Of a stretch of 64,000 bases of DNA, positions 6,454 to 33,108 are shown one piece after another (position 1 is the stretch's first letter; every line of letters begins with the position of its first letter). The stretch comes from Betaproteobacteria bacterium (GTDB lineage: Bacteria > Pseudomonadota > Gammaproteobacteria > Burkholderiales > SG8-39), in assembly GCA_004298385.1 (NCBI GenBank), contig SCTX01000106.1, positions 12 to 64,011 of the forward strand. Reading direction: 5' to 3'. The notes under the pieces were generated by a model, which saw nothing but the letters and a program-made list of their open reading frames with translations, made no database searches and had not been told where the DNA came from. A program made the position numbers and the translations under genes.

Positions 6454-7227
6454 CTACAGTACCGCCGAAGCGCCGCCGTCCAGATTGATGCTGGTGCCGG
6501 TGATATAGCTCGCCGCTTCCGACGCGAGAAACGCGATCGCGTCGGCGACTTCCTCGGCGCGGCCGACGCGCCCCAGCGGTATGTCCTTCGCCAGCTTGGC
6601 GTAGTACTGCTCCAGCGCGACACCGGCCTTGGCTGCCTTGCGTTCGTGCTGCCCCGCGCGCACCAGGCCGATGCATATGGTGTTTACCAGGATCTGGTGT
6701 GGCGCAAACTCCTTCGACAGCGCCTTCGTGAACGCGAGTCCCGCTGCGCGCGTGACCGTGGTCGGCATCGACTTGGCGCGGGGCTGCTTGGCGCCGGTAT
6801 TGGTGATGTTGACGATGCGCCCCCCGCCCTGCTGTTTCAGGTGCGGGATCGCCAGGCGCGCGAGCCGGATCGCGGCGAAGAGCTTGAGCTCGAAGTCCGC
6901 CTGCCAGATGTCATCGGTCACCGATTCGAATTCGCCGGTGGCCGAGGTGCCGGCATTGTTGACGAGAATGTCGAGCCGGCCGAATGCCCCGACCGCCTCC
7001 GCCACCAGCCTGGCGCAATCCTCCGCCCTGCTTACGTCCGCCTGCACCGCGGCAACGCTGCCCCCGGCGGCGCGGATCTCGAGCGCGACCTGATCCAGCA
7101 GCTCCCGGCCGCGCGCGGCAATCACCACGCTTGCGCCCTCTTGCGCCAGCCGCAGCGCGCTCGCCCTGCCTATGCCCTGCGAGCCGCCGGTAACGATCGC
7201 GACCTTGTTCTTCAGTTGCAAATCCAT
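6454..7227 (-). CDS. Short-chain dehydrogenase/reductase
   Basis: TGGSQGIG, LVNNAG, YITGTSINLDGG. Confidence 0.9.
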   Translation of the reverse strand: MDLQLKNKVAIVTGGSQGIGRASALRLAQEGASVVIAARGRELLDQVALEIRAAGGSVAAVQADVSRAEDCARLVAEAVGAFGRLDILVNNAGTSATGEFESVTDDIWQADFELKLFAAIRLARLAIPHLKQQGGGRIVNITNTGAKQPRAKSMPTTVTRAAGLAFTKALSKEFAPHQILVNTICIGLVRAGQHERKAAKAGVALEQYYAKLAKDIPLGRVGRAEEVADAIAFLASEAASYITGTSINLDGGASAVL

Positions 7228-7360
7228 CGGTGTTCTCCCATAGATTCCTGCGCTTCAAATGCCCGACAAAACCGCTACGACAAATTCTTTTTGTCGATAG
7301 ATGATAGGTAAGATCATAGCCAGATACCGGCTTCAGGGCGAGGCCATTTTGAACCTGTGA

Positions 7361-8578
<1,218 letters not shown>

Positions 8579-8613
8579 GGGGCGCTCATCCCGGGTGTTG
8601 CGGGGTCTCGACG

Positions 8614-8800
8614 TTGCGCGGACGAGAACCCGTCCGCGCGGATCGTCGATAGCGCACGGATGAAAAGCACATCCGCGCGCGATCGACGATCTTGGATAAA
8701 AGCCACCCCAAACCGATTTTGGTTTTATTCATAACCGTGTTTTCCGTGCGGATACGCTTTTCATCCGCGCGGAAAACACGGTTGGCGCGCGCGAGCGCGC
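8614..8800. repeat. Modular REP/BIME-like palindromic repeat, copy 1
   Basis: Three hairpins (GCGCGGACG..CGTCCGCGC; GATCGTCGAT..GGATGAAAAGCACATCC..ATCGACGATC; AACCGTGTTTTCC..GGAAAACACGGTT) between convergent genes; the same modules recur at 62287-62560. Confidence 0.8.
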
Positions 8801-8902
8801 AATGCCAGTGCGTCGGCACGCGGCGAAATATAAGGCAGGGTATATAGGGCTCCCGCCTGCCTTGCACACCAGTGTCGGGATTTGCGCTGGCTGACGCCGC
8901 CT

Positions 8903-11380
8903 TCAGCGCACTACGGGTTCGGCCTGCCAGATCTGCTCCGCGTATTCGCGGATGGTGCGGTCGCTGGAGAATTTTCCCATATTGGCTACGTTGAGAATGA
9001 CTTTGCGCAGCCATTGCTGCTGATCGCGATAGGCCGCTTCGACCTCCTTCTGACAGGCAACGTAGGACGCATAGTCGGCCAGCAGCAGATAGTGGTCGCC
9101 GTCGGCGAGCAGGTTATCCACGATGGCCTTGAACCGGTCCGGTTCCTCCGGCGAAAAATAGCCCCTGGCAATCATGTCGATGGCCTGGCGCAAGTCGTCG
9201 TTCGCGAGATAGTAATCCGCCGGCCTGTAGCCGCTGGCGCGCAGCTTGGCGACCTCTTCGGTGGTAAGGCCGAAAATGAAAATATTGTCCTCGCCTACTT
9301 CGCTCCTGATTTCGACATTGGCGCCGTCCAGGGTCCCTATGGTAAGTGCCCCATTCAATGCCAGCTTCATGTTGCCGGTGCCCGACGCCTCGGTGCCGGC
9401 GGTGGATATCTGCTCCGACAAATCGGCTGCCGGAATGATGTTCTCGGCCACGGAAACCCCGTAATTGGGCACGAATACCAGCTTCAGCCGTCCGTGTATG
9501 CGAATGTCATTGTTGACGATATCGGCCACGTCGTTGATCAGCCGGATAATCAGTTTGGCCATGGCGTAGGCCGGCGCCGCCTTGCCGCCGAAGATCACGG
9601 TGCGCGGCACCGCGTCGCCCTGCGGAGCATCGCACAGGCGCTTGTACAACGTCACCACGTGCAGCACGTTGAGCAATTGCCGCTTGTATTCGTGGATGCG
9701 CTTGATCTGCACGTCGAACAGCGAATCAACGTCGATCTCCATGCCCAGTAAAGACTTGAGTTCCGCCGCGAACCTTTGCTTGTTGGCGCGCTTTACCGCC
9801 GCGAATTCCCGGCGGAACTGCGCGTCCTCGGCCAGCGGAATCAGGCGCCGCAACTGGGTGAGATCCTTGAGCCAGCCGTCGCCGATGCGCTCAGTGATTA
9901 AAGCCGCGAGCAGCGGATTGGCCTGGTTCAACCAGCGGCGGGGGGTAATGCCGTTGGTCATGTTGATGATCTTGCCCGGAAAATAGCGGTCGAAATCGGC
10001 AAATATGGTCTGCTTCATGAGCTCGGTGTGGATCTGCGCCACGCCGTTTACCTTATGGCTGCCGACGACGGCGAGGTGCGCCATGCGCACGCGCTTGCCC
10101 TCTTCTTCGCCGATGATCGACATGCGCCGGCGCATGTCGTTGTCGCCGGGAAAACTGTGCATCACCCCGATGAGGAAGCGCTGGTTGATTTCGTAAATGA
10201 TCTGCAGGTGGCGCGGCAGCAGTTGCTCGAACATCGCGATCGGCCAGGTTTCCAGCGCCTCCGCCATCAGCGTATGGTTGGTGTAGGAGAAGGTGCGGGT
10301 GGTGATGTCCCAGGCCCTGTCCCAATCCAGGTGGTTTAGGTCGACGAGGATGCGCATCAGCTCGGGGATGGCGATCGCGGGGTGGGTATCGTTCAACTGG
10401 ATTGCGACTTTGTCCGGAAGCTGGTCGAAGCCTTCGTGGAATTTGCTGTAGCGGTACAGGATGTCTTGCAACGATGCGCAGACGAAGAAATATTGCTGTT
10501 TCAGGCGCAGTTCGCGGCCCATTGCAGTGGAGTCTTGGGGGTAGAGGACCTTGGACAGGTTTTCCGACTGGTTCTTGTCCTCGACCGCCTTGATGTAATT
10601 GCCCTCGTTGAAATATTTAAGGTCGAAGTCGCGCGACGCCTTGGCCGCCCACAAGCGCATGTTGTTTACGGTAGAGGTGGCATAACCAGGGATGGGCGTG
10701 TCGTAGGCCATCGCCATCACGTCTTCGGTGTCCACCCAATGATGGCGCTGCACGCCGTCTTCGTCGGAGAACTGCACCACGCGCCCGCCGAATTTGACAT
10801 GGTAGAGCACTTCCGCGCGCGGGAATTCCCAGGGATTGCCGTAGCGCAGCCAGTTGTCGGGGTGTTCCACCTGCCGCCCCCCCTCGATGCGCTGCGAGAA
10901 CATGCCGTACTCGTAGCGTATGCCGTAGCCGAAGCCGGGCAGATTCAGCGTCGCCATCGAATCCAGAAAACAGGCCGCAAGCCGCCCCAGGCCGCCGTTG
11001 CCCAAAGCCGCGTCGAATTCCATTTCGCACACCTGCCGCAAATCGACGCCTTGCTGCCGCAACGCTTCGCTGCATTCTTTCTCGAAGCCGAGGTTGAGCA
11101 GACTGTTCATCAGCGTGCGCCCCATCAGGAACTCCATCGACAGGTAATACACCCGCTTCGCGTCCGCGGCGTAATAGCTGCGCATGGTTTCCATCCAGCG
11201 CTCGATCAGGCGGTCGCGCGTCATGAACGCGGTGGCATGAAACCAGTCGCGCGTGGTCGCCATGATGTCGTCCTTGCCTACGGAAAACACCAGGCGATTG
11301 ACCATGGACTTGCTCACCGAAGCGACGTCGACGCCGGCAAGCTGATGGTTGATGAGGGATTGCAGCGGCTGCTTTGTCAT
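8903..11380 (-). CDS. glgP: Glycogen/starch phosphorylase
   Basis: LGNGGLGRLAACF, QLNDTHP, KRIHEYKRQ, EASGTGNMK (PLP lysine). Confidence 0.97.
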   Translation of the reverse strand: MTKQPLQSLINHQLAGVDVASVSKSMVNRLVFSVGKDDIMATTRDWFHATAFMTRDRLIERWMETMRSYYAADAKRVYYLSMEFLMGRTLMNSLLNLGFEKECSEALRQQGVDLRQVCEMEFDAALGNGGLGRLAACFLDSMATLNLPGFGYGIRYEYGMFSQRIEGGRQVEHPDNWLRYGNPWEFPRAEVLYHVKFGGRVVQFSDEDGVQRHHWVDTEDVMAMAYDTPIPGYATSTVNNMRLWAAKASRDFDLKYFNEGNYIKAVEDKNQSENLSKVLYPQDSTAMGRELRLKQQYFFVCASLQDILYRYSKFHEGFDQLPDKVAIQLNDTHPAIAIPELMRILVDLNHLDWDRAWDITTRTFSYTNHTLMAEALETWPIAMFEQLLPRHLQIIYEINQRFLIGVMHSFPGDNDMRRRMSIIGEEEGKRVRMAHLAVVGSHKVNGVAQIHTELMKQTIFADFDRYFPGKIINMTNGITPRRWLNQANPLLAALITERIGDGWLKDLTQLRRLIPLAEDAQFRREFAAVKRANKQRFAAELKSLLGMEIDVDSLFDVQIKRIHEYKRQLLNVLHVVTLYKRLCDAPQGDAVPRTVIFGGKAAPAYAMAKLIIRLINDVADIVNNDIRIHGRLKLVFVPNYGVSVAENIIPAADLSEQISTAGTEASGTGNMKLALNGALTIGTLDGANVEIRSEVGEDNIFIFGLTTEEVAKLRASGYRPADYYLANDDLRQAIDMIARGYFSPEEPDRFKAIVDNLLADGDHYLLLADYASYVACQKEVEAAYRDQQQWLRKVILNVANMGKFSSDRTIREYAEQIWQAEPVVR

Positions 11381-11893
11381 GATTATCCCCTAAGCCGGAC
11401 AAATAACAGACTTAGACCCCGTTGCAAATCGAGTGTTACAACGTGCCGAATGCGGGTATTGGACCGGATTACGAACGACATGCGCTTTTTGTTCACCGGA
11501 ACGCAGGACAATCAGGCTCAGTGAGACTATCCATCGGCCGAACCGCCGTGCCTTGCAGCATAATGAACACGATTCTAGGCCTTTTTGCCGCAGTCCGGTT
11601 AAAACGAACCCATGGTCCTGAAAGCGAGAGCTGGCGCGGAAATTGGAGATTTTAAGGGTATCCTCGAGTTGAACGGCGGATTGCCGATCCGACAGTCTTG
11701 CGGCATTGCTTTGGCCGGAGACGCCGATGAATCTTGGCAAAACGCTTTTTGCTCAACTCTACCTACAGGGATTAGCCCATCCGCGGCTGGCCACGTGGTC
11801 GGGACATGTTTTCAAGAACAGCTTGAACCCGGCATGCGCTCCCGATAAACTCTTCGGCCCAACGGCTCATTTTTTGATTGGCAAGGAGGAACC

Positions 11894-12136
11894 ATGTCGG
11901 ACGAAGATCTGAAGGCCGAGCTGGAGCGGCTGCGTAGCGAGAACGCCGCGCTCAAAAAAGGGGGCGCCGCCGGCCTCACCATGAAAGTCAGCGAGAAGGG
12001 CGCGCTCTCGATCTACGGCATGGGGCGTTTCCCGGTGACCTTGTACAAGGAGCAGTGGCTCAAGCTCCTGGAGCGGTCCGATGACATCCGCACGTTCATT
12101 GCGGCGAACGAGGGGCGGTTGAAAACGAAGGGGTGA
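11894..12136 (+). CDS. Small hypothetical protein (80 aa; N-terminal coiled coil + KVSEKGALSIYGMGRFPVTLYKEQW)
   Basis: Strong AAGGAGG RBS, host-like codon usage, protein-like composition. Confidence 0.75.
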   Translation: MSDEDLKAELERLRSENAALKKGGAAGLTMKVSEKGALSIYGMGRFPVTLYKEQWLKLLERSDDIRTFIAANEGRLKTKG

Positions 12137-12229
12137 GTGCGTTGAATAAGCCCAAAATGACCGGCGCGAGCGACGCCGAGGTCATCGCACTGCTGTTGAC
12201 GGAGCGCGCCACCCTGGCTCGGGGTTGGC

Positions 12230-13354
12230 CTAAGCACCCCACTCCCGCCACCCCGCCAGCAGCGGAAAATAAAGCCCCAGCATCGCTCCGTCGCCTTGCG
12301 CGAGTGCCCGGGCGTAGCGTTCGAGTTGAACTTGGTATCGCTCCTTTTCCCGATCGAGGAAGCCGTCCACGTTCGTGCCTTCGTGCCCGCTCGCCTTGTA
12401 GTCCACGATCCAGCGCTTCCCGTCGCGGTCGGTGAAACTGCGGTCGATGACCAAGTTGCGGCGCTCGCCGTCGAGCATGGCCGTGAGGCGGTATTCATTG
12501 CGCGCGTCCTGCTGCGGCCCGAGCAGCCAACGCCCGCGTTCGTCGGCGAGCGCGCTTGCGAGCGCTTTGGCGACGCGTGCGCTGGCGGCGGCAAGCTGCG
12601 CTTCTTCCACGCCACGCGCGGCGAGTTCGTGGTGGAAGACATCGCGCATGGTCTCAACACGCGCCGCGCTCCAGCCGTGCAATTCACCTTCGGCGATTCT
12701 CTGCAGCCAGCGATGCACCACGCTGCCGACGTGGCGCGCGGTTTCGCCCACCCAGGAGTATTCGACGTCGTCCTGCGAACGTGCGGTTTCGCTGGCGGCG
12801 TTCCACGCGAGCGCGGGCGGCGCAACCGGCGGGGACCAGCCAGACGCCAGGCGGCGCAGCGACTGGTCGAGGACTGCGTCCCCGTCCGCGCCCTCGGTCG
12901 CCAACGGCGCCGGCGCTGTCGCGGCAGCGCGTTGGAACTCGCTCGCCACCACCGGCCAGAGCTTGGCCAGCAGGCTGCGCGATTCGGGAGTGCGCGCCGT
13001 TTGCACCTTGTCCTCGACCAGCAGCCGCGTTTCGCCGAATAAATGCAGGCGCTGCTTCGCGCGCGTGGCCGCGACGTAGAGCAGGCGGCCGTCCTCAAAG
13101 GCTGCTTGCTCGGCGGCAAGCTGTTTGATCCACGCATAGATGGGATCGCGCTCGGCGCCGGTTTCTTCGATCGGGGCGAGGAGCAGATTCGTGTTCGCTT
13201 CCGGTCTGCGCGGATTTGACGCATCCGGCTGCGCCGGGCGTTCCATCCACAGCAAGAGCTTCTTTCCTGCGGCAGGCGGCGCCTTGCCCAGGCCGGGCAC
13301 GATCACATGATCGAACTCCAGGCCCTTCGCCTTGTGCATGGTCATGATCTGCAC
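12230..13354 (-). pseudogene. addA: Second, 5'-truncated copy of addA (helicase motifs V-VI + RecB-type nuclease domain), reading frame intact
   Basis: Begins VQIMTMHKAKGLEFD; contains LLYVAATRAK and nuclease DR..IVDYK; colinear with 15913-17030. In-frame stop at 13424-13426 and no upstream helicase sequence. May be expressed rather than a pseudogene. Confidence 0.85.
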
Positions 13355-13606
13355 CGTGAACTTAAGGGGGCGGCATGAAATTTTCTGACGAAGCCAAGCG
13401 TGCTGCTGAAATTCTAGCCCCCCTTAGTCCGTCGACTCCAGGTAGACGATAGCAATGCCCTTTCTGGTACTCTATGTCTTGCTTATGTGGTTTCCATGTA
13501 TCCATCGGCTCCCATGTCACTTTGTCGGAGGCGAAAAATACGGCCAAACGTCCGCGAGGACCAAGGCGCACCCTTCGCGTAGGCACATCCGAGGCTAGAT
13601 GTCGCA

Positions 13607-13636
13607 TTGACGGGCTATTCAAATGGCGAGTACTAT
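13607..13636 (+). promoter_or_regulatory. Sigma70-type promoter of the retron operon
   Basis: TTGACG (13607-13612), 18-nt spacer, TACTAT (13631-13636), placing +1 at about 13642-13643, where the a2 repeat begins. Confidence 0.65.
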
Positions 13637-13642
13637 AAGTGC

Positions 13643-13804
13643 GTCTCTTAGTTGGGCTTGTTCGGTTTTCTGTTCGAATGACGCTCTTGGCCCGGTGTAC
13701 AGCCAGGCCGAATTATATTGCGCGAGACTCTTTGGGCTGGTTTCCCATCCCGAGAGCTCCTCGCTCTCGGGCTGGGAAACCAGCCCACGCTCTTAGTAAG
13801 AGAC
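13643..13804 (+). ncRNA. Retron msr-msd ncRNA
   Basis: Terminal inverted repeat GTCTCTTA (13643-13650) / TAAGAGAC (13797-13804); candidate branch G at 13651 in TTAG context; msd hairpin 13733-13757 / 13763-13787 (25 bp, one mismatch, 5-nt loop); directly upstream of effector and RT. Confidence 0.9.
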
Positions 13805-13808
13805 AATC

Positions 13809-14738
13809 GTGACACCCCAGCTCTCCCATCCGAGCAGTAAGACACTGATGGGGGAGCTGGTTTCTCTTTTTCAATCCAAGAGCATTCATACTCGCCGAGA
13901 TCGGCGACTAATCTTTGTTTGCGGCGGCTCCGTGAAACCGTATGGACGATCTTTCCGAAAACGATTTCTCAATTACGCACGAACCTCTCTCCACGATGTT
14001 CGCCTGTTTCTCGCCGAAGATGCCGCCCGAGATGTCTTCGCACATGAAAATCCATTTTTCGTAAATATTGCCGAATTTGAAACTCTGATCAGCGAGCTTG
14101 CTGATTGCGTTGTTGTAATTCCGGAAAGTACCGGTTCAATCGCAGAACTCGGTTATTTCTCCGGCCACAAATCGATTAGAAGCAAGATTCTCGTCGTCAA
14201 TGATCTTCAGTTTCAAGGTGAGCCATCCTTCCTGAATCTCGGCCCCATCGAACTCGCAAACCATCACTCCGACTACCGCCCGACCCTTCATTTCAACTTA
14301 AAGGAGAAAGATCAGAATTTTCGCGCGATCGTTAACCAGTTAAGGCGCTTCGCACTGGAAATTCGAGGCCCCTTTGAATTCAAGAAATATGGCCAGCTTC
14401 CTATTCGGCATCGCCTTTTTGTAATCTTTGAATTAATCCACTTATTTGGAGAAATTAGTTACGACGCCTTAGAACTCGCGGTTAGATTTGTATTTCTAGG
14501 TGGAAGATACCTAGGCGACAAACATAAACGAGAGGTACGACAACTTCTATCAATTCTCTGTGCAGGGAAATATGTACAGCGCCTCGATAATGGCCTCCTG
14601 TTGTCGCCAGTGCCTGAAGTCAAGCCGTTTTTGGATATCAATGAATCTCTTAGGGATGATCTTCGAGTCAAGATATCTGACTTTGTCCAACGGGTGTCAG
14701 TACGTGATCTGGCCCGGCGCAAAGGGACAACAACATGA
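13809..14738 (+). CDS. Retron Ec86/St85-family effector (NDT-like N-glycosidase + C-terminal wHTH-like region)
   Basis: IFVCGG, FLAED, VIPESTGSIAELGYF, SFLNLGP motifs; ~300 aa; overlaps RT start (ATGA). Start may be GTG 13809 or ATG 13848. Confidence 0.85.
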   Translation: MTPQLSHPSSKTLMGELVSLFQSKSIHTRRDRRLIFVCGGSVKPYGRSFRKRFLNYARTSLHDVRLFLAEDAARDVFAHENPFFVNIAEFETLISELADCVVVIPESTGSIAELGYFSGHKSIRSKILVVNDLQFQGEPSFLNLGPIELANHHSDYRPTLHFNLKEKDQNFRAIVNQLRRFALEIRGPFEFKKYGQLPIRHRLFVIFELIHLFGEISYDALELAVRFVFLGGRYLGDKHKREVRQLLSILCAGKYVQRLDNGLLLSPVPEVKPFLDINESLRDDLRVKISDFVQRVSVRDLARRKGTTT

Positions 14739-15688
14739 TTCTCCGCAAAATGGCCGAAGACATGAGAGTTCCCCTAGCTCATATTGAGTTGTTGGCCACA
14801 ACTGCCAACCATCGTTACAAGATATACCGAATACCAAAGCGCACAGGAGGAACCCGAGAAATCTCACATCCTTCGAAGGAGCTCAAGAGCCTGCAAAGAT
14901 GGCTTGCGCTTCACCTGTTTTCAAGGTTGCCGATTCACGATTCGGTCTATTCGTATCGGATCGGGGTTGGTATTCGCGACCACGCCGAGATCCATAAGAG
15001 GGGCAATTACCTGGTTCGGATCGATCTCAAGGATTTCTTCCCTTCAATTACCTCAAAGGACGTGGCCCGCCTCCTCATTGAGAATCGACAGAAACTTGGA
15101 CAAATAATAACGGCTACGGACTTGAAAGCCATTTGCTGGATCGTCTGCCGCAATGGTCGTTTAACGATCGGGGCCCCGTCCTCTCCTGTTATTTCGAATG
15201 CGGTGCTATATGCGGTCGACGAGTATTGGTCTGTGACTTGCGAGCAACGTGGAATTACTTATTCCCGCTATGCGGATGACATTTACCTTTCAACAAACAG
15301 GCCGAACATTTTAGCCGGCACTTACGACGAAATGCGCAAAGATCTTGAAAATCGCGAATGGCCAAAATTGCAGATCAATCGGCGGAAGGTTGTGTTTACT
15401 TCCCGTAAGCATAATCGAAATGTTACCGGCCTGATCCTCACGTCGGATCGACGAGTGTCGATCGGGCACGAGAAGAAAAGACAGATCCGATCTCAAGTCT
15501 TCAAATTTACGCAAGATCAACTCTCCGCAGAACAAGTTTCTTATCTTCGCGGATATTTATCGTTTGCTAAATCCGTAGAACCAAGCTTTCTAACAAGACT
15601 TAGAAAGAAATTTGGCGTCAGCGTGATTCATCAAATTGCGAATACTCAATCGATACAGATCAAGAAGGTTAAGGCGCGAAAGCAGTGA
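14735..15688 (+). CDS. Retron-type reverse transcriptase
   Basis: IPKRTGGTREI, HAEIH (NAxxH-equivalent), DLKDFFPSI, IGAPSSP.ISN, YSRYADD, VTG. Confidence 0.95.
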   Translation: MILRKMAEDMRVPLAHIELLATTANHRYKIYRIPKRTGGTREISHPSKELKSLQRWLALHLFSRLPIHDSVYSYRIGVGIRDHAEIHKRGNYLVRIDLKDFFPSITSKDVARLLIENRQKLGQIITATDLKAICWIVCRNGRLTIGAPSSPVISNAVLYAVDEYWSVTCEQRGITYSRYADDIYLSTNRPNILAGTYDEMRKDLENREWPKLQINRRKVVFTSRKHNRNVTGLILTSDRRVSIGHEKKRQIRSQVFKFTQDQLSAEQVSYLRGYLSFAKSVEPSFLTRLRKKFGVSVIHQIANTQSIQIKKVKARKQ

Positions 15689-15912
15689 TGCTAGATCCTT
15701 CCTGGTTGGGGAGCCGCTATTCCAGTGACACCCTCCGCACCCAGGAATTATCAGATTTGACCGGGCCGGGGACCCGAACGGGGCTCAATTCTCTCCGGCC
15801 ATTCAACTACTAATATGTCCCTTCGCTCAGGCCAATAGCAACGAAATCCGCAGCATCAGTTGTCTCGCACTCCCCCGCTGGGCCTCAGAGATGGTCGCTT
15901 ACATCGAACAAG

Positions 15913-18900
15913 CTAAGCGCTCCACTCCCGCCAGCCCGCCAGCAGCGGGAAGTAGAGCCCCAGCATCGCTGGCTCAGCGCGAGCGAGTGCTTGGGCGTAA
16001 CGCTCGAGTTGCGCCCGGTAGCGTTCCTGCTCCTGGTCGAGAAACCCGCCCACATTCGTGCCCTCATGGCCGCTCGCCTTGTAGTCCACGATCCAGCGCT
16101 TGCCGTCCGTGCCGGTAAAGGTGCGGTCCATGACCAGGTTGCGGCGCTCGCCTTCGATCACGGTGGTAAGACGGTATTCGCTGCGTGCGTCCTGCTGCGG
16201 CCCGAGCAGCCATTGGCCGCGCGGGTCGGCGAGCGCATTCGCGAGCGCCCTGGCCACGCGCTCGGCCGCCGCGGCAAGCTGCGCTTCCTCGACGCCGAGC
16301 GCGGCGAGTTCGTTGTTGAAGCTCTCGTACATAGTATCGATGCGCGCCGGGTTCCAGCCTTTCAGTTCATCCTCGGCGATCCTCTGCAGCCAGCGGTGCA
16401 CCACGCTGCCGACGTGGCGCGCCGTCTCGCCCACCCAGGAGTATTCGATGTCGTCGCCGACGCGGGCAGTATCGGCAGGCGGCGTCCAGGTCGCGGCGGG
16501 TGGCGGAGCAGGTGATGACCAGTCCGAAGGCAGGCGGCGGAGAGCTTTGGAGGTTTGCCCCTCGGCCGAGGCCTCCTGCCGCGAGCGGGTAGAGGGAGCG
16601 TCAGTTGCATCTTCCGCGGGTGGCGACATGGCAGCGGCCTCGCCGAACTCCGCTTTAACCGCCGGCCATAGCTTTTCCAGCAGTGAACCGCGAGCGGGCG
16701 GTTTTAGTTCGGTCGCGTCGTCCTTGGCGCTGAGTTTCACGTCGCCGAGCAGGTGCAAGTGCTTCTTCGCGCGGGTGGCGGCGACGTAGAGCAGGCGCCC
16801 AAACTCGTGGGCCCCTTTCTCCTTGTCCAGACGGCGGATCGTTTCGTAGATGGGGTCCTTGTCGCTGCCGGTCGGGTTGATGGGCGCGAGGAGCAATCCG
16901 CCGGCCTGGCCTGCGCGCTCCATCCACATGAACAACTGGCGCTCGTCGCGACCGGTGCCCGAGCCGAGGCCGGGGACGATGACGGTGTCGAATTCCAGGC
17001 CCTTGGCTTTGTGGATGGTCATGATCTGCAGGTGATCGCTCGCTGCGAGGTCGGGTTGCGCGTAGAGCTTGGCGAGGCTCGCCTCGAACGAGGCGGGATC
17101 GGTGATGGCGCCGGCTTCCTCGGACTTCTCCAGGTGGTCAAGATAGATGTCAGCGTCTTCGAGATCGGTGTCGTCGGCCACACAGGCGGGACCGCCAAGG
17201 GCGAGCCACACGCCTTCCACCTGCTCCCGCAGACTTGAACGAAAACGCCGGGCGAAGCACGCGGCGAGCGCAGTGCGCGTGCGTTCCAGGCGCGCGCGGC
17301 CGTCGACGGTGAGCGCCGCGAGGCGGCGCGCGTCGTGCATCAGTTCCCACACGGTCCGTCGGCTGGAGATCGGCTCTGGTAGCTGGTCTACGGGCAATTC
17401 CTGTTCGATCAGATCTGTCCCAGCAAGCGCGTGCAGGTCGGCGAGCGTGAGCCCGCACCAGGGCGCGCGCAGCACGGCGAGCCAGGCGAGGCGGTCGGCC
17501 GGGTGGGCGATGGAGCGCGTCAAAGCGAGTAGGTCCTGCACCACCGGGCGGTGGCCGAGCGGCTCGATCTCGATGGCGCGGAACTTGAGGCCGGCGGCGC
17601 GCAGCGCCGGTACGATGGCTTCGAGATGGTTCTTGGCGCGCACCAGCAAACCGATGGTGCCCTGCGGATCCTCGGCCTGCGCCTCGCGAACCAGCGCGAC
17701 GACCTGCTCAGCTTCCGCGACAGCGTCGCCGTTGAAGACGGGATGCACCCTCACCGCATCGGCCTCCGCCGGGTGCACCGGCTCCGAAGGCGAGTATGGC
17801 ACCGCGCCCGCGGCGACGTCTTCCTCCTCGGGCATCAACTGCGCGAACGCATTGTTCACCCACTCGACGATGTCAGCCTGTGAACGAAAGTTGGCCGAAA
17901 GCGTGAGCGGCTCCAGCGCTACGCCGCCTATGCCTTCGTGGCGCGCCTTGAGAAACAGGCCAACCTCGGCCTCGCGGAAACGATAAATCGACTGCATCGG
18001 GTCGCCCACCACGAACAACGTGCGCCCATCGCCCTGCTCCCAGCCTGCGGTGAGCTTCTCCAGCAGTTCGTACTGCGTGAAGGACGTGTCCTGGAATTCG
18101 TCCACCAGGATGTGGCGGATGCGGTAGTCGAGCGACAACAGCAGGTCGGTGGGCCCCTCGTCGGTCTCGAGCGATGTGAGTGCGCCCTGCGCGATCTCGA
18201 CGAAATCGGCCTCGCCGTGCGCGGCGAACACGATCTTTAGCTGCGCGACGGCAAGGGGTAGCAGGCGCGTAATGGCGCCGAGCGCCTGCCACTGCTCCTC
18301 GGAGTAGCGCGCCGGCGGCAGGGACTGCACTGCGAGCAGTGCTTCGAGTAAGTCGTCGCGCTCCGCGAGTGTGTCGTAGAGCGGATGCTTTTTTCGCCAA
18401 CCGCCGGCCTTGGTGAGCAGCGATTCAGCGAAGGCGATCCACGCGCCGGCATCATCATCCGCGGGCGCCTCCAGGCCGGACACGAGCAGCGCGCGCGCGC
18501 GGCGCACGGCGTCGGCCCGCAAGCCTGCGAGCGCGGCCTCGAGCGCAGCGCGGTCTCCGGCGCGGCCGTGCTGCCTCATCCAGTGGTCGCGGCGCGCGAG
18601 CATGCCGGCGATCAAGGACTCGGCGGTGGCGACGTTGTTGTCCAGATGACCGAGCAGGCGCGCGACGTCGGCAGCGGCGGCTTCATCGGCGCCTTCGAGT
18701 GAATCAAGCGTAGCACGCGCGGCTTCGAGGTAAAGTTGCGACGCGTCCTCCACGCTCTCCGGCTGCGCGCCGAAGCGCGCGAGCACTGGCATCTGGCGCG
18801 TGAGCGAAGCGCACAGCGCATCTATGGTCTGGATGCGCAGGCGCGCGGCGACCGTCTCGAGATTCCAGCCGAGCTTGTCGTTGCGCACCAGCGCCGCGCG

Positions 18901-19188
18901 AGAGAGATCCCAGGTCAGGGCACGGTGACCCGCATCGGGGCGTGGCGTGTCGCGCGCGGCGGCAAGCGCTTCCAGCACGCGCTTCTTCATCTCGGCCGCG
19001 GCTTTCTTGGTGAAAGTGACGGCGGCGATTTCCTCCGGGCGCTCCACGCGCGCGAGCAGCACCAGCATGCGCTGGATCAGGAGCTCGGTCTTGCCCGAGC
19101 CTGCAGGCGCTTGCACGATGAACGAGGTATCCGGATCGAGTGCGCGGCGGCGCTGTTCGAAGTCGGGGGCGACGGCGACGTTACTCAT
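15913..19188 (-). CDS. addA: ATP-dependent helicase/nuclease subunit A (UvrD/RecB family)
   Basis: APAGSGKT, VTFTKKAA, DEFQDTS, VGDPMQSIYRFR, TIHKAKGLEFD, YVAATRA, C-terminal IVDYK; ATG 19188 overlaps the addB stop. Confidence 0.92.
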   Translation of the reverse strand: MSNVAVAPDFEQRRRALDPDTSFIVQAPAGSGKTELLIQRMLVLLARVERPEEIAAVTFTKKAAAEMKKRVLEALAAARDTPRPDAGHRALTWDLSRAALVRNDKLGWNLETVAARLRIQTIDALCASLTRQMPVLARFGAQPESVEDASQLYLEAARATLDSLEGADEAAAADVARLLGHLDNNVATAESLIAGMLARRDHWMRQHGRAGDRAALEAALAGLRADAVRRARALLVSGLEAPADDDAGAWIAFAESLLTKAGGWRKKHPLYDTLAERDDLLEALLAVQSLPPARYSEEQWQALGAITRLLPLAVAQLKIVFAAHGEADFVEIAQGALTSLETDEGPTDLLLSLDYRIRHILVDEFQDTSFTQYELLEKLTAGWEQGDGRTLFVVGDPMQSIYRFREAEVGLFLKARHEGIGGVALEPLTLSANFRSQADIVEWVNNAFAQLMPEEEDVAAGAVPYSPSEPVHPAEADAVRVHPVFNGDAVAEAEQVVALVREAQAEDPQGTIGLLVRAKNHLEAIVPALRAAGLKFRAIEIEPLGHRPVVQDLLALTRSIAHPADRLAWLAVLRAPWCGLTLADLHALAGTDLIEQELPVDQLPEPISSRRTVWELMHDARRLAALTVDGRARLERTRTALAACFARRFRSSLREQVEGVWLALGGPACVADDTDLEDADIYLDHLEKSEEAGAITDPASFEASLAKLYAQPDLAASDHLQIMTIHKAKGLEFDTVIVPGLGSGTGRDERQLFMWMERAGQAGGLLLAPINPTGSDKDPIYETIRRLDKEKGAHEFGRLLYVAATRAKKHLHLLGDVKLSAKDDATELKPPARGSLLEKLWPAVKAEFGEAAAMSPPAEDATDAPSTRSRQEASAEGQTSKALRRLPSDWSSPAPPPAATWTPPADTARVGDDIEYSWVGETARHVGSVVHRWLQRIAEDELKGWNPARIDTMYESFNNELAALGVEEAQLAAAAERVARALANALADPRGQWLLGPQQDARSEYRLTTVIEGERRNLVMDRTFTGTDGKRWIVDYKASGHEGTNVGGFLDQEQERYRAQLERYAQALARAEPAMLGLYFPLLAGWREWSA

Positions 19189-21919
19189 CGCTGCGCTCGT
19201 TAATGCGGCACAGCGGCTGCATGCCGCAGAACTGGCAGGTGTCGTCGCCGTGCTTGGGAGCCACGCGCGCGTCACCCGAGGCGAAGCCCTGCCCCAACGC
19301 GGCCAGCTCGCGCCGCCAGCCTTCGACAAGGTTCTCCCAGGAGCCGTAGCCCTTGGCGAGCGCGCTGCGTTGGTCGCCGATGGTTTTGACGCCCGGCAAG
19401 AGATCTTTGTCGCGCGCGATGCCCTTGAATTCCAACTCTCCTGTTTTGACGCGCGCGAAAGCGACGGCCGCGATGTTCTTTTCGCTGCCGATTGCGTAAA
19501 GCGGCAGTTGCGGCTCGTCCGGCCGGGTGCCAAGCCATGCCGTGACGCTGGCTTCGCCCGTCTTATAGTCGAGAATGACGTGGCCGCCCGCGCCCAGTTT
19601 GTCCATGCGGTCGAGCTTGGCGTTCACCGCAACGCCACCGAATTGCACGACGCGTTTTTCTTCCACTGCGGCCACTTCGAAAACCGGGCGTTGCTTCTCG
19701 AATTCGAGCCAGTCGCGCGCGAGTGCGGCGAGGCGCGAGCGTTCCCGCTCGGCGAAGCGGCCTTGCAGCGCTTCGGGTTTCCAGCGGCGCAGCCTGCCGA
19801 TGGCTTCATCCGCGCAGTGAGCGAGTAGCGTGGCAAGATCATCCGTGCTGATCGCATCAAGCGCGGCTTTGCCGCCGAGCGCCGTCCAGACCGCGGCGAG
19901 CACCGAGTGCAGCAGCGTGCCACGGTCCCTTGCGTTTAGACCGGGCTGCGGCGTCTCCAGTGCTTCGGTGCCGAGGCGATGCGCGGCGAAGGCGCGGAAC
20001 GGGCATGCCGCCTGGTCGCGAAATATGCCGGTGCCACCCGAGTGCGGGCCTGCATCCGCGCCCAGGCGTGCGAGCTCAGGCGCCTTATCGTCGGCGATGC
20101 GCTCCTCGCGCCGCGCACGGTGGATCGCGTCGCGCAGCTTGTCGTAGACCGGAATGCCGAAATCTTCGAACATCGCTCCGGGCACGGCCGCAATCAGCGG
20201 GCTCGCAGAAAGTTCGCGGTCGCCCTCGCGTAGCGGATGGCTGAACACCACTTCCGGTGCCGCGGCCAGCCAGCCTGCGGTGATGCGCCGGTCGAGCTCG
20301 ATCGATCCGGCGGCGTCCGCCTGGGGCACTCCCGCTTCGCGCTGCAACTTGATCGGAATGAACGGGTTAGGCCGCACGGGAATGGGCCATGCGTCGTCGG
20401 TGAGTCCCATCACCCACAGGTGGTCGAATTCGAGTCCGGCGGATTCGAGCACGCCGAGTATCTGCACAGGGACATCGGCGGCTTCGGGCTGGAACAGCGT
20501 GTCGGCGGTCACGCGCGCCAGACGCCGGCAGGCATCAGCATAGCCCATGCGCCCGGCGACGGCATCGAGCGCGGCGAAGCCCGCCACCACTTCGTGCCAT
20601 TTTTTCAGCGTCTGGTATTCCGTCGAGTCTAAGCCGCGGCCCTTGTCGAGAAACCCGAGAAGACCGAGCGCCGCCGAGATCGCCTTCGCCCACTCCGAAG
20701 GCCGCTTCGCGCCGAACAGATTTGTCTTGCGGAATTCGGCGAGCTGCGACAGCCGCTCGGCGAGGACGGGGCAACGCGGCGCGCCGCGCATGTCCATCAG
20801 GCGCAGCAGGGCTTCCAGCGTGAGGGTCGTGCCGGCGCGCGCGCGCAACACGGCATCGAGTCGCGCGCGAGCGGTCATTTCCGCCTCGCTGCCCGCGAAA
20901 AACGGCGAACGAAGCAGCCGGCTCGCACGATTGAATTCGATCTCGCGCCCGGCAAGCTGCAGCGCGAGCAACGCGTCATGTACCAGAGGGTATTGATTGA
21001 GAGAGATGCCAATCGATATGTTGAAAGGCAGCGTTTGCTTCGACACCCCGGGCAGTGAATGGTCCGGCTGCATGATCGATGCAAAAATGCGTTTGACCGT
21101 GCTGCGCGCCTGCGCGAGGCCGGGAACGACGACGCCGATATGCGCCTGCGGATTGGCCTCCAGCCGCGCGCGCGCCCAAGTGGCGCTAGCGAGCATTTCG
21201 TCGCGCTCGGCGGTGAACGCGATGCGCGAGCAGCGCCCCGCGTCTCCAGCCGGGCCAGTCGCAAGCACTTCGATACCCACGGCTTCCAGGGCATCAAGCA
21301 ACGCGCGCTGCTGAGCAGTCATAATGTCAAAGCCATAGCGGACCAGGGTCTTTGGTTTGGTGAGGGCCTGATGCGCGAGCAGCGGAATCACTGCGTCGGG
21401 CAGCCGTGCCGCGTCGATGTAGCCGGATTTTCGGCTGGAACGCGCGCAGGCGCGCTCGTAGCGCGCCGCCCAGTCGAGAAAGGCCTTCGCATCTTCGTTC
21501 GCAGCAGCGGCCTTCAGGCGCGGCATCAGGCACCCGGCGTGCGCGAGCTGCCAGGCTTCGCGGCATTGCGTTGCGGCAGACGAGGCCGAGAGCAGAGTCT
21601 CTGCCAGTTTGGATGCGCGGATCGCGTCCTCCCACAGTGATTGCTCCTGCGCCGGCGTGAGCAGGATAGGCAGAGCGGACGCGAGTTCGGAGTAGAGCGC
21701 GTCTTCATAGCAGCGCTGGACGAAAGCGGAGTACGACAGGATGTCGGCCGATTCCCAGGCGCTGCGGCCTTGCGCGGCCTGGGCCGCATCGAATTCGCGC
21801 TCGAGCGATTGCGCCAGGCGCTGGTTGGGGGTGATTACTGTGACACCGCCGGCGAGTCCTTCGGCTAAGCGCGCGAACAGTTGCGCTTTGGATAACGCTG
21901 CGTAAGGTTCGCCGGACAT
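19181..21919 (-). CDS. addB: ATP-dependent helicase/nuclease subunit B (AddB-like, PD-(D/E)xK nuclease)
   Basis: ACPFRAFA, KLDRMD..ILDYKTG, QLPLY and CQFC...LCR Fe-S staple cysteines; upstream of addA. Confidence 0.88.
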   Translation of the reverse strand: MSGEPYAALSKAQLFARLAEGLAGGVTVITPNQRLAQSLEREFDAAQAAQGRSAWESADILSYSAFVQRCYEDALYSELASALPILLTPAQEQSLWEDAIRASKLAETLLSASSAATQCREAWQLAHAGCLMPRLKAAAANEDAKAFLDWAARYERACARSSRKSGYIDAARLPDAVIPLLAHQALTKPKTLVRYGFDIMTAQQRALLDALEAVGIEVLATGPAGDAGRCSRIAFTAERDEMLASATWARARLEANPQAHIGVVVPGLAQARSTVKRIFASIMQPDHSLPGVSKQTLPFNISIGISLNQYPLVHDALLALQLAGREIEFNRASRLLRSPFFAGSEAEMTARARLDAVLRARAGTTLTLEALLRLMDMRGAPRCPVLAERLSQLAEFRKTNLFGAKRPSEWAKAISAALGLLGFLDKGRGLDSTEYQTLKKWHEVVAGFAALDAVAGRMGYADACRRLARVTADTLFQPEAADVPVQILGVLESAGLEFDHLWVMGLTDDAWPIPVRPNPFIPIKLQREAGVPQADAAGSIELDRRITAGWLAAAPEVVFSHPLREGDRELSASPLIAAVPGAMFEDFGIPVYDKLRDAIHRARREERIADDKAPELARLGADAGPHSGGTGIFRDQAACPFRAFAAHRLGTEALETPQPGLNARDRGTLLHSVLAAVWTALGGKAALDAISTDDLATLLAHCADEAIGRLRRWKPEALQGRFAERERSRLAALARDWLEFEKQRPVFEVAAVEEKRVVQFGGVAVNAKLDRMDKLGAGGHVILDYKTGEASVTAWLGTRPDEPQLPLYAIGSEKNIAAVAFARVKTGELEFKGIARDKDLLPGVKTIGDQRSALAKGYGSWENLVEGWRRELAALGQGFASGDARVAPKHGDDTCQFCGMQPLCRINERSDE

Positions 21920-22017
21920 GGTGGCGTATGATAATCCACGAGCGTCAGTCACGTGAGCGAGGTAAGCCGATTGAATACGAACCTGGAATTCCCCGCTGTC
22001 CTCCCAGGCACGCGAAC

Positions 22018-23277
22018 ATGACTGCCGAATCCGCACGCATAAACCGCCTCACGCTGCGTTTCACCGACGCGGGCCTGGAGAAGGCTTTTGCCGAGGAGCA
22101 GGCGAAGAAATCCCTGCGTCCGGTTCGAATCGCGCTCGTCTGCGCCGGTGCGCTGACGGTCGTCATATGGCCCGTGGCCATTCAGACAGCTCCTGCTGTT
22201 CAAGAGCACATGCCGAGAATCGTTGTCACGGTTCTGGCCACGCTTGGCCTCTGCTTTGCCTTGACGCATACGCAGGTTTTTCTGCGCCGGCATCAGTGGA
22301 TAATGCTCGCCCTCGCGTGTGTGCTGTCGTTTGGAATGACAAATGGCATCATGCCACGATATCCGCCGCAGATACTGGAAGCACGCGGCTTTTTCCCAAT
22401 GGCGATTCAATTGTTCACCATCTACGGCGTTTTTCGCCTGCGTTTTCCCGCCGCGGTGGCCGGCGGATGGATCAGCATGGCGATGTACCTTGCCTTGCTT
22501 CGCGCGCTCGGATTGCTGCCCGAAAGCGCGTTCTTCGTGCACGCGTCCACACTCATGGCGGCGAACCTTTGGGGCATGCTGATTTGCTACCAGATGGACC
22601 TCGCCATCCGGCGTGCGTTCCTGGCAATGCGCGACGTCGCCGCCGAGCACGAGCGCTCCGAGCAGCTGCTGCTCAACATCCTGCCGGCGGACCTTGCGAA
22701 AGAGTTATCGGAGACCGGCAGCGCGCGTCCGGCCCGGCACGAGTCCGTCACGATATTGTTTACCGATTTCAGTGGGTTCACGCAGACGGCATCGGCAATG
22801 CCCGCGGACCGCATGGTTGCCGAATTGAGTGACATATTCGCGGCGTTTGACGACATCTGCGATGAACTGGGCGTCGAAAAGATCAAGACCATCGGCGACG
22901 CCTACATGGCCGCCGCCGGTTTGCCCAAGCCCTGCGCGGATCATGCCCAGCGCTGCGTACGCGCGGGCCTGCGCATGTTGGACTATCTTGAGCAGAGGAA
23001 CCGAAAAGCGCCTTTCAAGTGGTCACTTCGCGTCGGCGTTCATTCGGGTCCGGTGGTCGCGGGTGTCGTCGGCAAGCGCAAGTATGCCTTCGACATCTGG
23101 GGCGATACCGTCAATATCGCGTCGCGAATGGAAAGCGCCGGCGAGGCCGGCCGGGTCAACGTTTCGGCCTACACCTTCGATCTGATTCAGGATGAGTTCG
23201 CCTGTGAATATCGCGGCAAGGTGGGCGCCAAGGGCAAGGGCGAGATCGATATGTACTTTGTCACTGGTGCACGATAA
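22018..23277 (+). CDS. Membrane-bound class III adenylate cyclase
   Basis: About six hydrophobic helices, then LLLNILP, LFTDFSGFT, KIKTIGDAYM, FDIWGDTVN.ASRMES (Lys/Asp ATP-specifying residues). Confidence 0.9.
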   Translation: MTAESARINRLTLRFTDAGLEKAFAEEQAKKSLRPVRIALVCAGALTVVIWPVAIQTAPAVQEHMPRIVVTVLATLGLCFALTHTQVFLRRHQWIMLALACVLSFGMTNGIMPRYPPQILEARGFFPMAIQLFTIYGVFRLRFPAAVAGGWISMAMYLALLRALGLLPESAFFVHASTLMAANLWGMLICYQMDLAIRRAFLAMRDVAAEHERSEQLLLNILPADLAKELSETGSARPARHESVTILFTDFSGFTQTASAMPADRMVAELSDIFAAFDDICDELGVEKIKTIGDAYMAAAGLPKPCADHAQRCVRAGLRMLDYLEQRNRKAPFKWSLRVGVHSGPVVAGVVGKRKYAFDIWGDTVNIASRMESAGEAGRVNVSAYTFDLIQDEFACEYRGKVGAKGKGEIDMYFVTGAR

Positions 23278-23322
23278 TCCAGAGGTGCCCCTGGTCACCA
23301 GCAGCGGCGCCATTACCCGAAC

Positions 23323-24165
23323 TTACATCAGTTTCCTGAAAAACCTGTCCAATGCACGCTGAGGCAATAGCGTGGGCAGGGTCCACTTGAAGAATTTATT
23401 CTGAACGATGGCATAGCGTATTTTTGGTTTCTCCGTTTCAAAAATATCCGCGATCTGCCTCGAGCATTGCTCCAGGGGCATTCCTGTTCTTTTCGCCTCA
23501 GGCAAAACTTTGCCAAAGAATCTGGCCAGCGAATCAGAATACGAAGTCCCTTCGAACTGCTGCAGCGAGCCCTTGTCCCAGATGGGCGTCCGGATCACAC
23601 CAGGCCCGATAATGATCACGGTGATGCCATAACGCATGAATTCCATGCGCATGGCATGCGAAATGCCTTCCAGGGCATGCTTCGTACCGGCATAGGGCGC
23701 CATATAAGGGCCTGCAAGCTTGCCGGCCACCGAACTTATATTCAAAATCCTGCCCGGCGCTGACGGATGATCTTTTTGGGCGCCCAGCAACGGCAGAAAG
23801 GCTTTTGTCACACGGAGCAGGCCAAACACATTCACTTCGAAATTATGGGCTATCTCCTCCACGGACAGCAGCTCGATGGGTCCGAGGACCGAAATGCCGG
23901 AGTTGTTGATGAGCCCGCCGAGTCCCTGCCCTTTGCATTGGCCTTTGACTTCAGCCACCGCGCGGCCTATGGCCGCCGCGTCGGTAACGTCGAAGAAAAG
24001 CGGCAGGAAACCGGCACCCAGCTCGGATTTCACCCGGTCCGCATCTTCCTTTTTGCGCACGCTGCCAAAGACCGCGTAGCCTCTGCGGATCAATTCTTTC
24101 GCGGCGCCGTAACCAATGCCCGTGGAAGCGCCGGTGATCAGGACGAACTTGGATTTTGGTTTCAC
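23323..24165 (-). CDS. Short-chain dehydrogenase/reductase
   Basis: TGASTGIG, NISS, YAGTK (YxxxK); GTG start at 24165 inferred. Confidence 0.88.
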   Translation of the reverse strand: MKPKSKFVLITGASTGIGYGAAKELIRRGYAVFGSVRKKEDADRVKSELGAGFLPLFFDVTDAAAIGRAVAEVKGQCKGQGLGGLINNSGISVLGPIELLSVEEIAHNFEVNVFGLLRVTKAFLPLLGAQKDHPSAPGRILNISSVAGKLAGPYMAPYAGTKHALEGISHAMRMEFMRYGITVIIIGPGVIRTPIWDKGSLQQFEGTSYSDSLARFFGKVLPEAKRTGMPLEQCSRQIADIFETEKPKIRYAIVQNKFFKWTLPTLLPQRALDRFFRKLM

Positions 24166-24199
24166 AATCGGTTCGCGTCTAATGGTTTGCGCGTAACAC

Positions 24200-28085: not shown

Positions 28086-28139
28086 CCATCGATTGTTGGC
28101 CACACAGGCGGCGCGTCATTCGCAAACCGGAGAAGGTAC

Positions 28140-29453: not shown

Positions 29454-29464
29454 AGCGCCGGGTT

Positions 29465-32964: not shown

Positions 32965-33108
32965 GACCCGCGCATCCGCGGCTCGGCGAGGCGGGATCCA
33001 GGGCGACCAGTCCTGCGAATCCACGCACTCCGCACGGTTTGCCAATAGCGTCGCGCCACACGCCGGAGTAAGATGATCGGCGCGTGCTCGTTCAACTGAG
33101 CCACCCCC

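Follow-up and report, generated by a model that had tools for sequence, protein, structure and literature searches.

How does a retron come to lie between two diverged copies of the 3' end of one DNA-repair gene? The question is raised by a 64,000-nucleotide (nt) stretch of DNA (the window), which is contig C144, one of the 169 contigs of the metagenome-assembled genome (MAG) G000, our source genome. Here the genes of an AddAB-type helicase-nuclease are followed by a retron, and the retron is followed by a second, truncated 3' end of addA (the stub). We consider it likely that a resident addBA pair was replaced by a divergent addBA pair with a hitch-hiking St85-family retron, the incoming DNA being anchored by homology in addB and joined to the resident addA at helicase motif V, and that the stub left behind probably acts as a homology arm.

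The map of open reading frames (ORFs) and the matches to Pfam, PADLOC and NCBIfam gave, on the minus strand, the order addB, full addA and addA 3' fragment, with the retron on the plus strand between the last two. The addB ORF (19181-22036) matches NCBIfam TIGR03623, 'probable DNA repair protein', over residues 65-945 (930.4 bits against a cut-off of 299.6). The gene was set at 19181-21860, its start near 21860 being estimated from the beginning of that match, and its PD-(D/E)XK domain is present (Pfam PDDEXK_1, E = 6.9e-26). The full addA (15913-19188, in ORF 15913-19533) encodes a superfamily 1 UvrD-like helicase with a PD-(D/E)XK nuclease (Pfam UvrD-helicase, UvrD_C and PDDEXK_1). Its probable start is at 19188, where the homology of its relatives begins, near residue 116 of the ORF, and overlaps the stop of addB. 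The protein misses the NCBIfam equivalog cut-offs for addA_alphas (228.5 against 860.75 bits) and addA_Gpos (169.4 against 707.65 bits). It is an AddA-like type outside both models, and the name addA rests on its architecture and its partner.

The stub (12230-13354, minus strand) consists of 374 codons, from motif V to the stop, and carries UvrD_C and PD-(D/E)XK domains (Pfam). BLASTP aligned it with residues 835-1206 of the full AddA at 61% identity (234/383, E = 1e-135); both segments begin with (M/L)QIMT(M/I)HKAKGLEFD and end with PLLAGWREW(G/S)A. The last 180 residues hold 39 differences, and linker indels account for 20 gap positions in the alignment. The DNA of the two copies is 82% identical over the last 300 nt and 84% over a 68-nt stretch at motif V. 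The retron has a GC content of 0.45-0.50, and the two addA copies have 0.62-0.72. A 28-nt repeat (15764-15791 against 16968-16995, 71%) was considered as an addA remnant between the reverse transcriptase (RT) gene and addA, and was treated as chance. A preliminary description of this DNA, made from the letters alone, is borne out on the gene order (addA ending at 15913, a lower-GC retron on the opposite strand, a further addA segment at 13354-12230), on the extent of both segments from motif V to the same stop and on their different linker indels; its manual count of about 39 differences in some 180 nuclease-domain residues proved exact. At 61% amino acid (aa) identity, the two copies are, as it stated, no recent exact duplication.

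The arrangement of stub, retron and addA is real and not an assembly chimera, because the stub/retron junction is crossed, with at least 141 nt on each side, by two metagenome contigs that are independent of this assembly. Contig L044 (6521 bp, 94% identical to the window) reaches from glgP to 15866 and takes in the stub, the 13354/13355 junction and the retron, and contig L045 (2075 bp, 96%) spans 13214-15288. The second addA segment is thus not an assembly repeat, in line with the preliminary description. Logan contigs of the runs X3 and X4 cover 15173-16030 and 15173-16099, from the end of the RT gene across the spacer into the 3' end of addA; these runs belong to studies other than the likely source and, with near-identical figures, may be one data set. 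A further X3/X4 contig, at 13327-14044, has 28 letters on the stub side, below the 31-letter bridging rule applied, and an X3/X4 joint of 13338 to 18068 was disregarded, one of its sides having only 26 letters.

To describe ancestry we distinguish two classes of addAB, under names of our own: class I (G019, G016, G005, G008 and others, plus the stubs) and class II (the full genes of G000, and G012). In the close relative G019, the gene order glgP, small ORF, addA, addB and orf449 (an adenylate-cyclase-domain gene) is that of the window, but without the retron. The window is 93% identical to G019 over 8473-12136 and 89% over 22100-28100 at the nt level, and GlgP and the orf449 product are 95% and 83.5% identical at the aa level. 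The stub fits this background. It is 83% (nt) and 80% (aa) identical to G019, and its position relative to glgP is that of addA in G019. It shares 80-82% aa identity with the AddA C-termini of G016, G008, G005 and G019, as against 61% with G012 and the full copy; the C-terminus of G019 itself is 79-81% identical to those of G016, G008 and G005, the same distance as that of the stub.

The full genes are of the other class. AddA is 73.7% aa identical to G012, compared with 55-60% to eight other members of the genus (59% to G019), and AddB is 79.7% identical to G012, compared with 52-55% to the others (55% to G019). In a tree of AddA residues 116-834 (13 rows), G000 and G012 group with support of 100/100, and in a tree of residues 835-1018 (19 rows) the full G000 copy groups with G012 at 98/97. 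The latter tree places the stubs of the window and of L044 in a 15-row clade with G019 (94/92). By identities and trees alike, the stub has the ancestry of the flanks and the replacing addA does not. The nuclease domain (residues 1019-1206) behaves differently: its tree has no class structure, the full G000 copy does not pair with G012, and identity is 68-90% in all pairs examined.

Sliding identity and informative sites show an unbroken G012-like signal from ~16500 to ~21700, straight through motif V at 17031. The ratio of G019-only to G012-only sites shifts from 14:49 in 21500-21700 to 21:8 in 21700-21900, and identity to G019, which is 0.57 in the sliding window 21506-21655, is 0.93 in the next one, 21656-21805. 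This switch near 21700 lies about 60 codons inside addB. Since the G012-like signal includes the 5' part of addA, all of addA is foreign, and it is addB that is a hybrid, by these comparisons resident (G019-like) over its first ~60 codons and G012-like for the remainder. The imported tract would accordingly be ~8.3 kb long, from 13355 to ~21700, and hold most of addB, all of addA and the retron. Identity, position and tree all mark the stub as class I, a remnant of the resident addA as judged by ancestry; the displacement of an old resident 3' end, which the preliminary description had proposed, thus stands. In G012 the class II addAB adjoins genes homologous to 33-40 kb of the window, as class I does in G005, and both classes therefore occupy the same chromosomal neighbourhood.

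The tract has one homologous and one abrupt end. The left breakpoint (21650-21720, from sliding identity and informative sites) lies inside homologous addB sequence, in a region that aligns with both G019 and G012. At the right junction, a three-way comparison found that G019/addA homology ends abruptly at 13354/13355, with unrelated sequence beyond. The 245-bp junction segment that follows (13355-13599) is identical in L044; 13355-13640 has no match in the 22 other genomes of the genus, and an 86-codon minus-strand ORF (13362-13622) has no match in Pfam or PADLOC. Homology to the retron unit of genome G107 spans 13600-15711 at 80% nt identity and does not include the junction segment. On its other side, a 201-bp spacer (15712-15912) leads from the end of that unit to the addA stop. 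It is identical in L044 up to the end of that contig at 15866, and 15689-15912 has no match in the 22 other genomes of the genus. From 13355 to ~21700 the tract contains addB, addA, the RT gene, the NDT-like effector gene and 0.45 kb of non-coding DNA, with no integrase or recombinase. Since genes fill all of it but this 0.45 kb, there is no room for an integrase or transposase, and the view that no integrase was involved agrees with the gene content.

Because one end is homologous and the other abrupt, we read the replacement as homology-facilitated illegitimate recombination, in which an anchor is needed on one side only. An ~8.3-kb tract, consisting of most of a class II addB, the whole class II addA and the retron downstream of it, would have overwritten the resident class I addB-addA pair. 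At the left end, homologous recombination would have taken place in the conserved 5' end of addB. At the right end, a non-homologous join would have formed inside the resident addA, at the codon starting helicase motif V. Such an event would delete the resident addB and addA codons 1-834 and leave the 3' 1.1 kb as an untranslated, orphan-like stub. While the ancestries on either side are read directly from the comparisons, the type of join and a single event are what we infer from them. Homology-facilitated illegitimate recombination is invoked for type VI secretion system (T6SS) effector swapping (PMC11751169), and the displaced 3' fragment without a start resembles rhs 'orphan' modules (PMC3967940).

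Comparison of the window with L044 gave two strains of the locus at different distances along its length. There are no differences over 13282-13907 (the junction, the 245-bp segment and the non-coding RNA (ncRNA) of the retron) or over 15400-15866. The stubs diverge by ~15% in 12230-13060, the effector region (13908-14770) by ~10%, with the variant also found in L045 and X3/X4, and the flanks by ~5%. Between the two stubs, the ratio of nonsynonymous to synonymous substitution rates (dN/dS) is 0.245 at dS 0.30, compared with 0.21-0.26 for functional class I pairs. Since this matches functional genes and drift should bring the ratio near 1, most of the stub divergence would stem from working addA genes, with the identical junction exchanged later. 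The junction appears younger than the divergence of the stubs, and the window and L044 form a mosaic as far as the two sequences tell. This suggests that the stub may now serve as a homology arm. With the stub as right arm and the 5' end of addB as left arm, ordinary recombination would be able to move addAB plus retron between class I backgrounds; equivalently, class I DNA of retron-free strains would overwrite the distal stub.

Several points weigh against this reconstruction. No donor was found: G012 is only 78-80% identical (nt) over the tract and carries no retron, which is why we do not regard it as the donor. The nuclease domain of the full addA (~15913-16480) is not G012-like, with informative sites in 15900-16100 at 24:6 toward G019. 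Given this and the lack of class structure in its tree, the tract is itself a mosaic and may stem from more than one event. What counts as 'resident' depends largely on comparison with a single close relative, G019, which is a MAG with 7% contamination. That the right join is non-homologous is read from one of its sides only. The homology-arm step rests on two strains, and patchy recombination after a single insertion gives the same pattern; a stub without relaxed constraint also fits one that is still functional.

Two observations concern addA across the genus. The AddA nuclease domain is ~80% identical between classes whose identity immediately before it, at residues 855-1018, is only 20-65%, reflecting either very uneven constraint or genus-wide homogenising recombination. 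Contig ends interrupt addA near residues 708-720 or 753 in several MAGs of the genus (G014 C73/C264, G020 C21/C19, G013 C21), and in others the addA match splits at the same place; residues ~708-753 may be a hypervariable or strain-variable segment that defeats assembly.

A more far-reaching version of the replacement would make the stub and the 5' end of addB the arms of an integrase-free cassette, consisting of class II addAB and retron, that spreads through class I strains of the genus by ordinary recombination, with an AddAB that escapes inhibitors and an abortive-infection retron co-selected against phages that attack end resection. We hold this to be unlikely. Recurrence was searched with the stub protein as query. 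In an order-level sample, 101 of 401 genomes had a match at E <= 1e-25, eight of them with two matches, and only G000 had two full-length matches on one contig. In a class-level sample, a match at E <= 1e-20 was found in 153 of the 400 scored genomes (G670 was not scored), four of them with two (the second match of G494 is not listed), and G000 was the only true duplicate. A search of the genus and its relatives (41 genomes) likewise found the addA 3' duplicate only in G000. Some of the genomes counted are flagged as unpublished (G050 and G403 at the order level; G718, G730 and G564 at the class level), on none of which a conclusion rests individually. The other candidates were not accepted as duplicates: contig-end overlaps in G146, G701 and G717; one gene split into two matches in G066, G120, G257, G259 and G403; single genes or genes cut at a contig end, which gave short open frames, in G143, G311, G362 and G405; and two partial matches overlapping by ~40 residues at contig ends in G021. 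Genome G099 has two addA 3' regions, 89% identical over 1463 nt, one ending contig C96 and the other starting contig C27 (L038/L039). This case is ambiguous and represents either a second addA 3' duplication or a strain mixture (a MAG with 5% contamination). The preliminary description had considered that the locus could represent an integrase-free route for delivering defence cargo, and had called for a survey of relatives for repeated addA 3' fragments around cargo; among the sampled genomes G000 alone had same-contig duplicates, and a general route finds no support in this.

The neighbours downstream of addA vary among relatives: a methylase in G016, Fic in G022, a lactonase, a kinase and an oxidoreductase in G017, a binding protein in G002, and DUF364 with cytochromes in G012. 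This variability is weak evidence of a hotspot. The N6/N4 DNA methylase of G016 (L022 8330-9376) and the Fic/DOC gene of G022 (L024 8575-9822) lie directly downstream of addA, hinting that this position gathers defence- or toxin-like cargo in the genus.

The cargo in the window is a retron that is complete by sequence criteria, promoter, msr-msd, NDT effector and RT all being found, as the preliminary description had it. A sigma-70-like promoter (13607-13636, plus strand; TTGACG, 18-nt spacer, TACTAT) lies just upstream of msr, within the block conserved with G107. It is a consensus match only, with two such sites found and 2.8 expected by chance. The predicted ncRNA (msr-msd, 13643-13804, plus strand) has a1/a2 repeats (13643-13650 pairing with 13797-13804), two msr stem-loops and, by inverted repeats, a 25-bp msd hairpin (13733-13787). 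A consensus fold with the G107 copy (two sequences only) holds 63 pairs. For two of these RNAalifold lists changes in both partners, and one of the two, U-A to A-U, belongs to the msd stem. The ncRNA region (13600-13808) shows no differences between the window and L044. An Rfam scan of 11000-17000 gave no retron ncRNA family, the sole match being the msd hairpin against mir-TAR, below threshold. The NDT-like effector gene (13809-14738, plus strand; 309 aa; St85/Sen2 RcaT family) matches PADLOC NDT_II-A (E = 1.2e-50) and NCBIfam NF038232, 'retron St85 family effector' (163.5 bits against a cut-off of 100); its product is 75.7% aa identical to the G107 copy. The RT gene (14735-15688, plus strand; 317 aa; Pfam RVT_1) matches PADLOC RT_II-A (E = 1.7e-106) and NCBIfam NF038233, retron_St85_RT (327.9 bits against 235), and its YADD motif (residues 179-182) is invariant at Y179, A180, D181 and D182 in the RT alignment. 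Both genes are under purifying selection, with dN/dS against L044 of 0.19 for the effector and 0.13 for the RT. A blastn search of 13355-15912 against plasmids and phages gave no match.

With ncRNA, effector and RT in family order, the element is assigned by these matches to the St85/Sen2 family, type II-A, and is an ordinary new member of a well-studied family. It shares with Retron-Sen2 (St85), the type II-A retron with RcaT, the gene order, an RT and an effector that exceed the curated NCBIfam St85 cut-offs with RT_II-A and NDT_II-A as best PADLOC matches, and an ncRNA with a1/a2 repeats and a long msd hairpin. In the Sen2 family, RcaT is sequestered by the complex of RT and multicopy single-stranded DNA (msDNA), and the triggers described, such as Dam methylation and degradation by RecE, act on msDNA (10.1101/2020.06.22.160242; 10.64898/2026.10.13.758329). 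Most likely the new retron works as its family does: the NDT/RcaT-like toxin would be kept in check by RT and msDNA until phage proteins modify or degrade the msDNA, which would free the toxin and lead to abortive infection. Unlike Sen2, its msd hairpin contains no GATC site when the sequence is read, so that the Dam trigger as described for Sen2 would not apply as such; its ncRNA matches no Rfam family; and its host is an uncultured groundwater bacterium. As an observation on the retron itself, the ~10% divergent effector allele (13908-14770) of L044, L045 and runs X3/X4 lies between an ncRNA without differences and an RT 3' end that is nearly identical, implying recombination inside the retron.

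The position of the retron raises the possibility that it guards, or depends on, the AddAB allele it arrived with, by an Ec48-like guard function or by msDNA compatibility, so that both are co-selected and move together. Retron and class II addAB do lie in one imported tract, the second strain variant keeps the same retron/addA junction, and two deeply divergent addAB classes at one locus are what phage pressure might yield. There is also a precedent in Ec48, a guardian of RecBCD with a two-transmembrane (2TM) effector (10.1101/2020.06.21.156273). The resemblance to Ec48, an association with an end-resection helicase-nuclease, is here by position only, while the RecBCD link of Ec48, a retron of another type, is described there as functional and not positional; the same paper shows another retron that does not guard RecBCD. 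The effector here is NDT-like, not of the 2TM type, and the known Sen2-family triggers act directly on msDNA.

The distribution of related retrons speaks against such a unit as well. The RT occurs in one of 23 genomes of the genus, none of the others having a retron downstream of addA, and in 6 of the 401 genomes of the order-level sample at E <= 1e-40. The closest retron, that of G107 (RT 83%, effector 76% aa identity), is on contig C18 and the G107 addA on C3; it sits in a low-GC island between a thiamine-pyrophosphate-enzyme gene and a Dak1 gene. G012 carries class II addAB without such a retron. A single-sequence RT scan of genome contigs gave no relative. An alignment-based scan, with one genome per species, succeeded, and we considered the best 80 of 587 confirmed RT relatives with flanks of up to 10 kb, some loci being shorter. 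An NDT effector was nearby in 22 of these 80 loci. Neither AddB nor the AddA C-terminus was found in the flanks of any of the 80, including the 22 with NDT, and the only AddA matches were two weak generic helicases (E about 1e-7). A full-text literature search for retrons with AddAB returned no retron in an addAB locus among the listed titles and beginnings of abstracts. We therefore regard a unit in which the retron guards AddAB, as the preliminary description had suggested, as quite unlikely; its further idea of a matched AddA nuclease allele finds no support, the nuclease domain carrying no allele-class signal. A functional link between retron and AddAB is possible but without support, and the retron beside addAB is best read as hitch-hiking. 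As to G107, its island extends over ~6 kb (L037 6500-12500), and two adjoining ORFs without Pfam match (498 aa, 7025-8521; 221 aa, 11846-12511) may be further defence genes.

The preliminary description had itself explained the locus by a smaller import, in which DNA carrying a foreign addA 3' end and the retron crossed over upstream of motif V, restoring a chimeric addA and displacing the old 3' end. Part of this holds: incoming DNA did displace the resident 3' end, which is the stub, and the full addA is mosaic in one respect, its nuclease domain lacking the G012-like ancestry of the rest. The incoming DNA was not just a 3' end and a retron, however. AddB and AddA residues 116-834 are no less foreign than residues 835-1018 (73-80% aa identity to G012 against 52-60% to class I), and the 100/100 clade of G000 and G012 is that of the addA 5' part. 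No breakpoint was found at or upstream of motif V, the sole sharp switch to resident ancestry being the one near 21700, in addB, which makes addB and not addA the hybrid. Of the separate trees called for in the preliminary description, that of the 3' copies did group the stub with G019, but the 5' part grouped with G012 just as the full 3' residues 835-1018 did. We regard an import of the 3' end alone as very doubtful.

It is also very improbable that the stub is a working gene, a stand-alone helicase-2B/nuclease that might act as a retron accessory or as a decoy for AddAB inhibitors. The intact 374-codon frame in both strains is compatible with it, as are the dN/dS of 0.245 between stubs and of 0.21-0.26 against functional genes and the position of the 86-codon ORF, which ends 7 nt before the GTG of the stub. 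Our low rating follows from the lack of an evident ribosome-binding site, no Shine-Dalgarno-like sequence being seen by eye upstream of the GTG, and from the commonness of long chance frames at ~70% GC, with overlapping frames of 403 and 248 codons at this very place. In addition, the zero-difference tract over the junction represents a recent exchange and accounts for the low dN/dS without selection on the stub, and the 86-codon ORF has no family match and is absent from the G107 locus.

Finally, an assembly chimera of two co-occurring strains can be dismissed almost entirely: a MAG of 169 contigs, several related species in the samples and a summed depth much higher over the stub than over the retron would have allowed for it (contig depths sum all organisms and are not usable for strain comparison), but L044 and L045 bridge the stub/retron junction independently and the Logan contigs of other studies bridge the retron/addA junction.

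Some observations concern the surroundings of the replaced genes. Between glgP and a small ORF (11894-12136), the window is hypervariable at 11500-11800, with 204 differing or gapped columns in 11600-11799 against L044, and the X3/X4 contigs skip 173 nt there (11585-11759). In G019 the addA stop is ~525 bp further from the small ORF, and this additional sequence, by eye, may hold a small minus-strand ORF. On the addB side, ~5 kb of the window (28100-33100) are not aligned in G019, whose matches jump from ~28100 to ~33100; this stretch encodes two ankyrin-repeat proteins (28140-29453 and 29465-31360) and a response-regulator/PAS/GGDEF protein (31378-32964). In G005 and G012, addB directly adjoins the cytochrome bd genes, which in the window start at 33109.

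Movement of defence systems without integrases or transposases has so far largely been inferred from hotspot statistics. The locus described here keeps both scars, the homologous breakpoint in addB and the non-homologous join in addA, along with the displaced fragment, so that direction and extent are directly readable. It also places two divergent alleles of addAB, a repair and anti-phage hub, at one locus within a genus (~55% aa identity, compared with 83-95% for the flanking genes); one allele, on our reading, took the place of the other and brought a retron with it. Should the stub truly be a homology arm, defence cargo would have a simple means of spreading in the genus, and one open to testing.

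The arrangement can be set beside three known kinds of cargo exchange. Integrase-borne islands, such as tRNA and tmRNA islands and e14 in icd, duplicate the 3' end of their target gene. Here, too, the cargo lies between a restored 3' end and the displaced old one, but there is no integrase, the repeat is 1.1 kb at 61% aa identity instead of a short near-identical att site, and the foreign DNA continues upstream for 5.8 kb, across two genes. With core defence hotspots the locus has in common that defence cargo sits between core genes without an integrase or transposase, and for such hotspots transfer by recombination in the conserved flanks has been proposed (PMC10250203). In contrast to these, only 1 of 23 genomes of the genus has a retron at this place, and the flanking core gene was itself replaced and partly duplicated.

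There is a likeness, too, with the orphan C-terminal modules that follow rhs, cdiA and T6SS effector genes and with effector swapping by homology-facilitated illegitimate recombination (PMC3967940; PMC11751169). There, as here, the resident 3' end is pushed aside by an incoming version of the gene together with its cargo and persists downstream as a fragment that lacks start signals, and of the two junctions one is in conserved homologous sequence, the other non-homologous. As for rhs, recombination between main gene and stub could, in principle, join the two and lose the cargo. What differs is the gene, a DNA-repair helicase-nuclease instead of a polymorphic toxin, and the cargo, a retron instead of an immunity gene; the replacement here takes in two whole genes and left one stub, not an array, and the arrangement is not recurrent in other genomes. 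We conclude that it is a variant of known recombination-driven cargo swapping.

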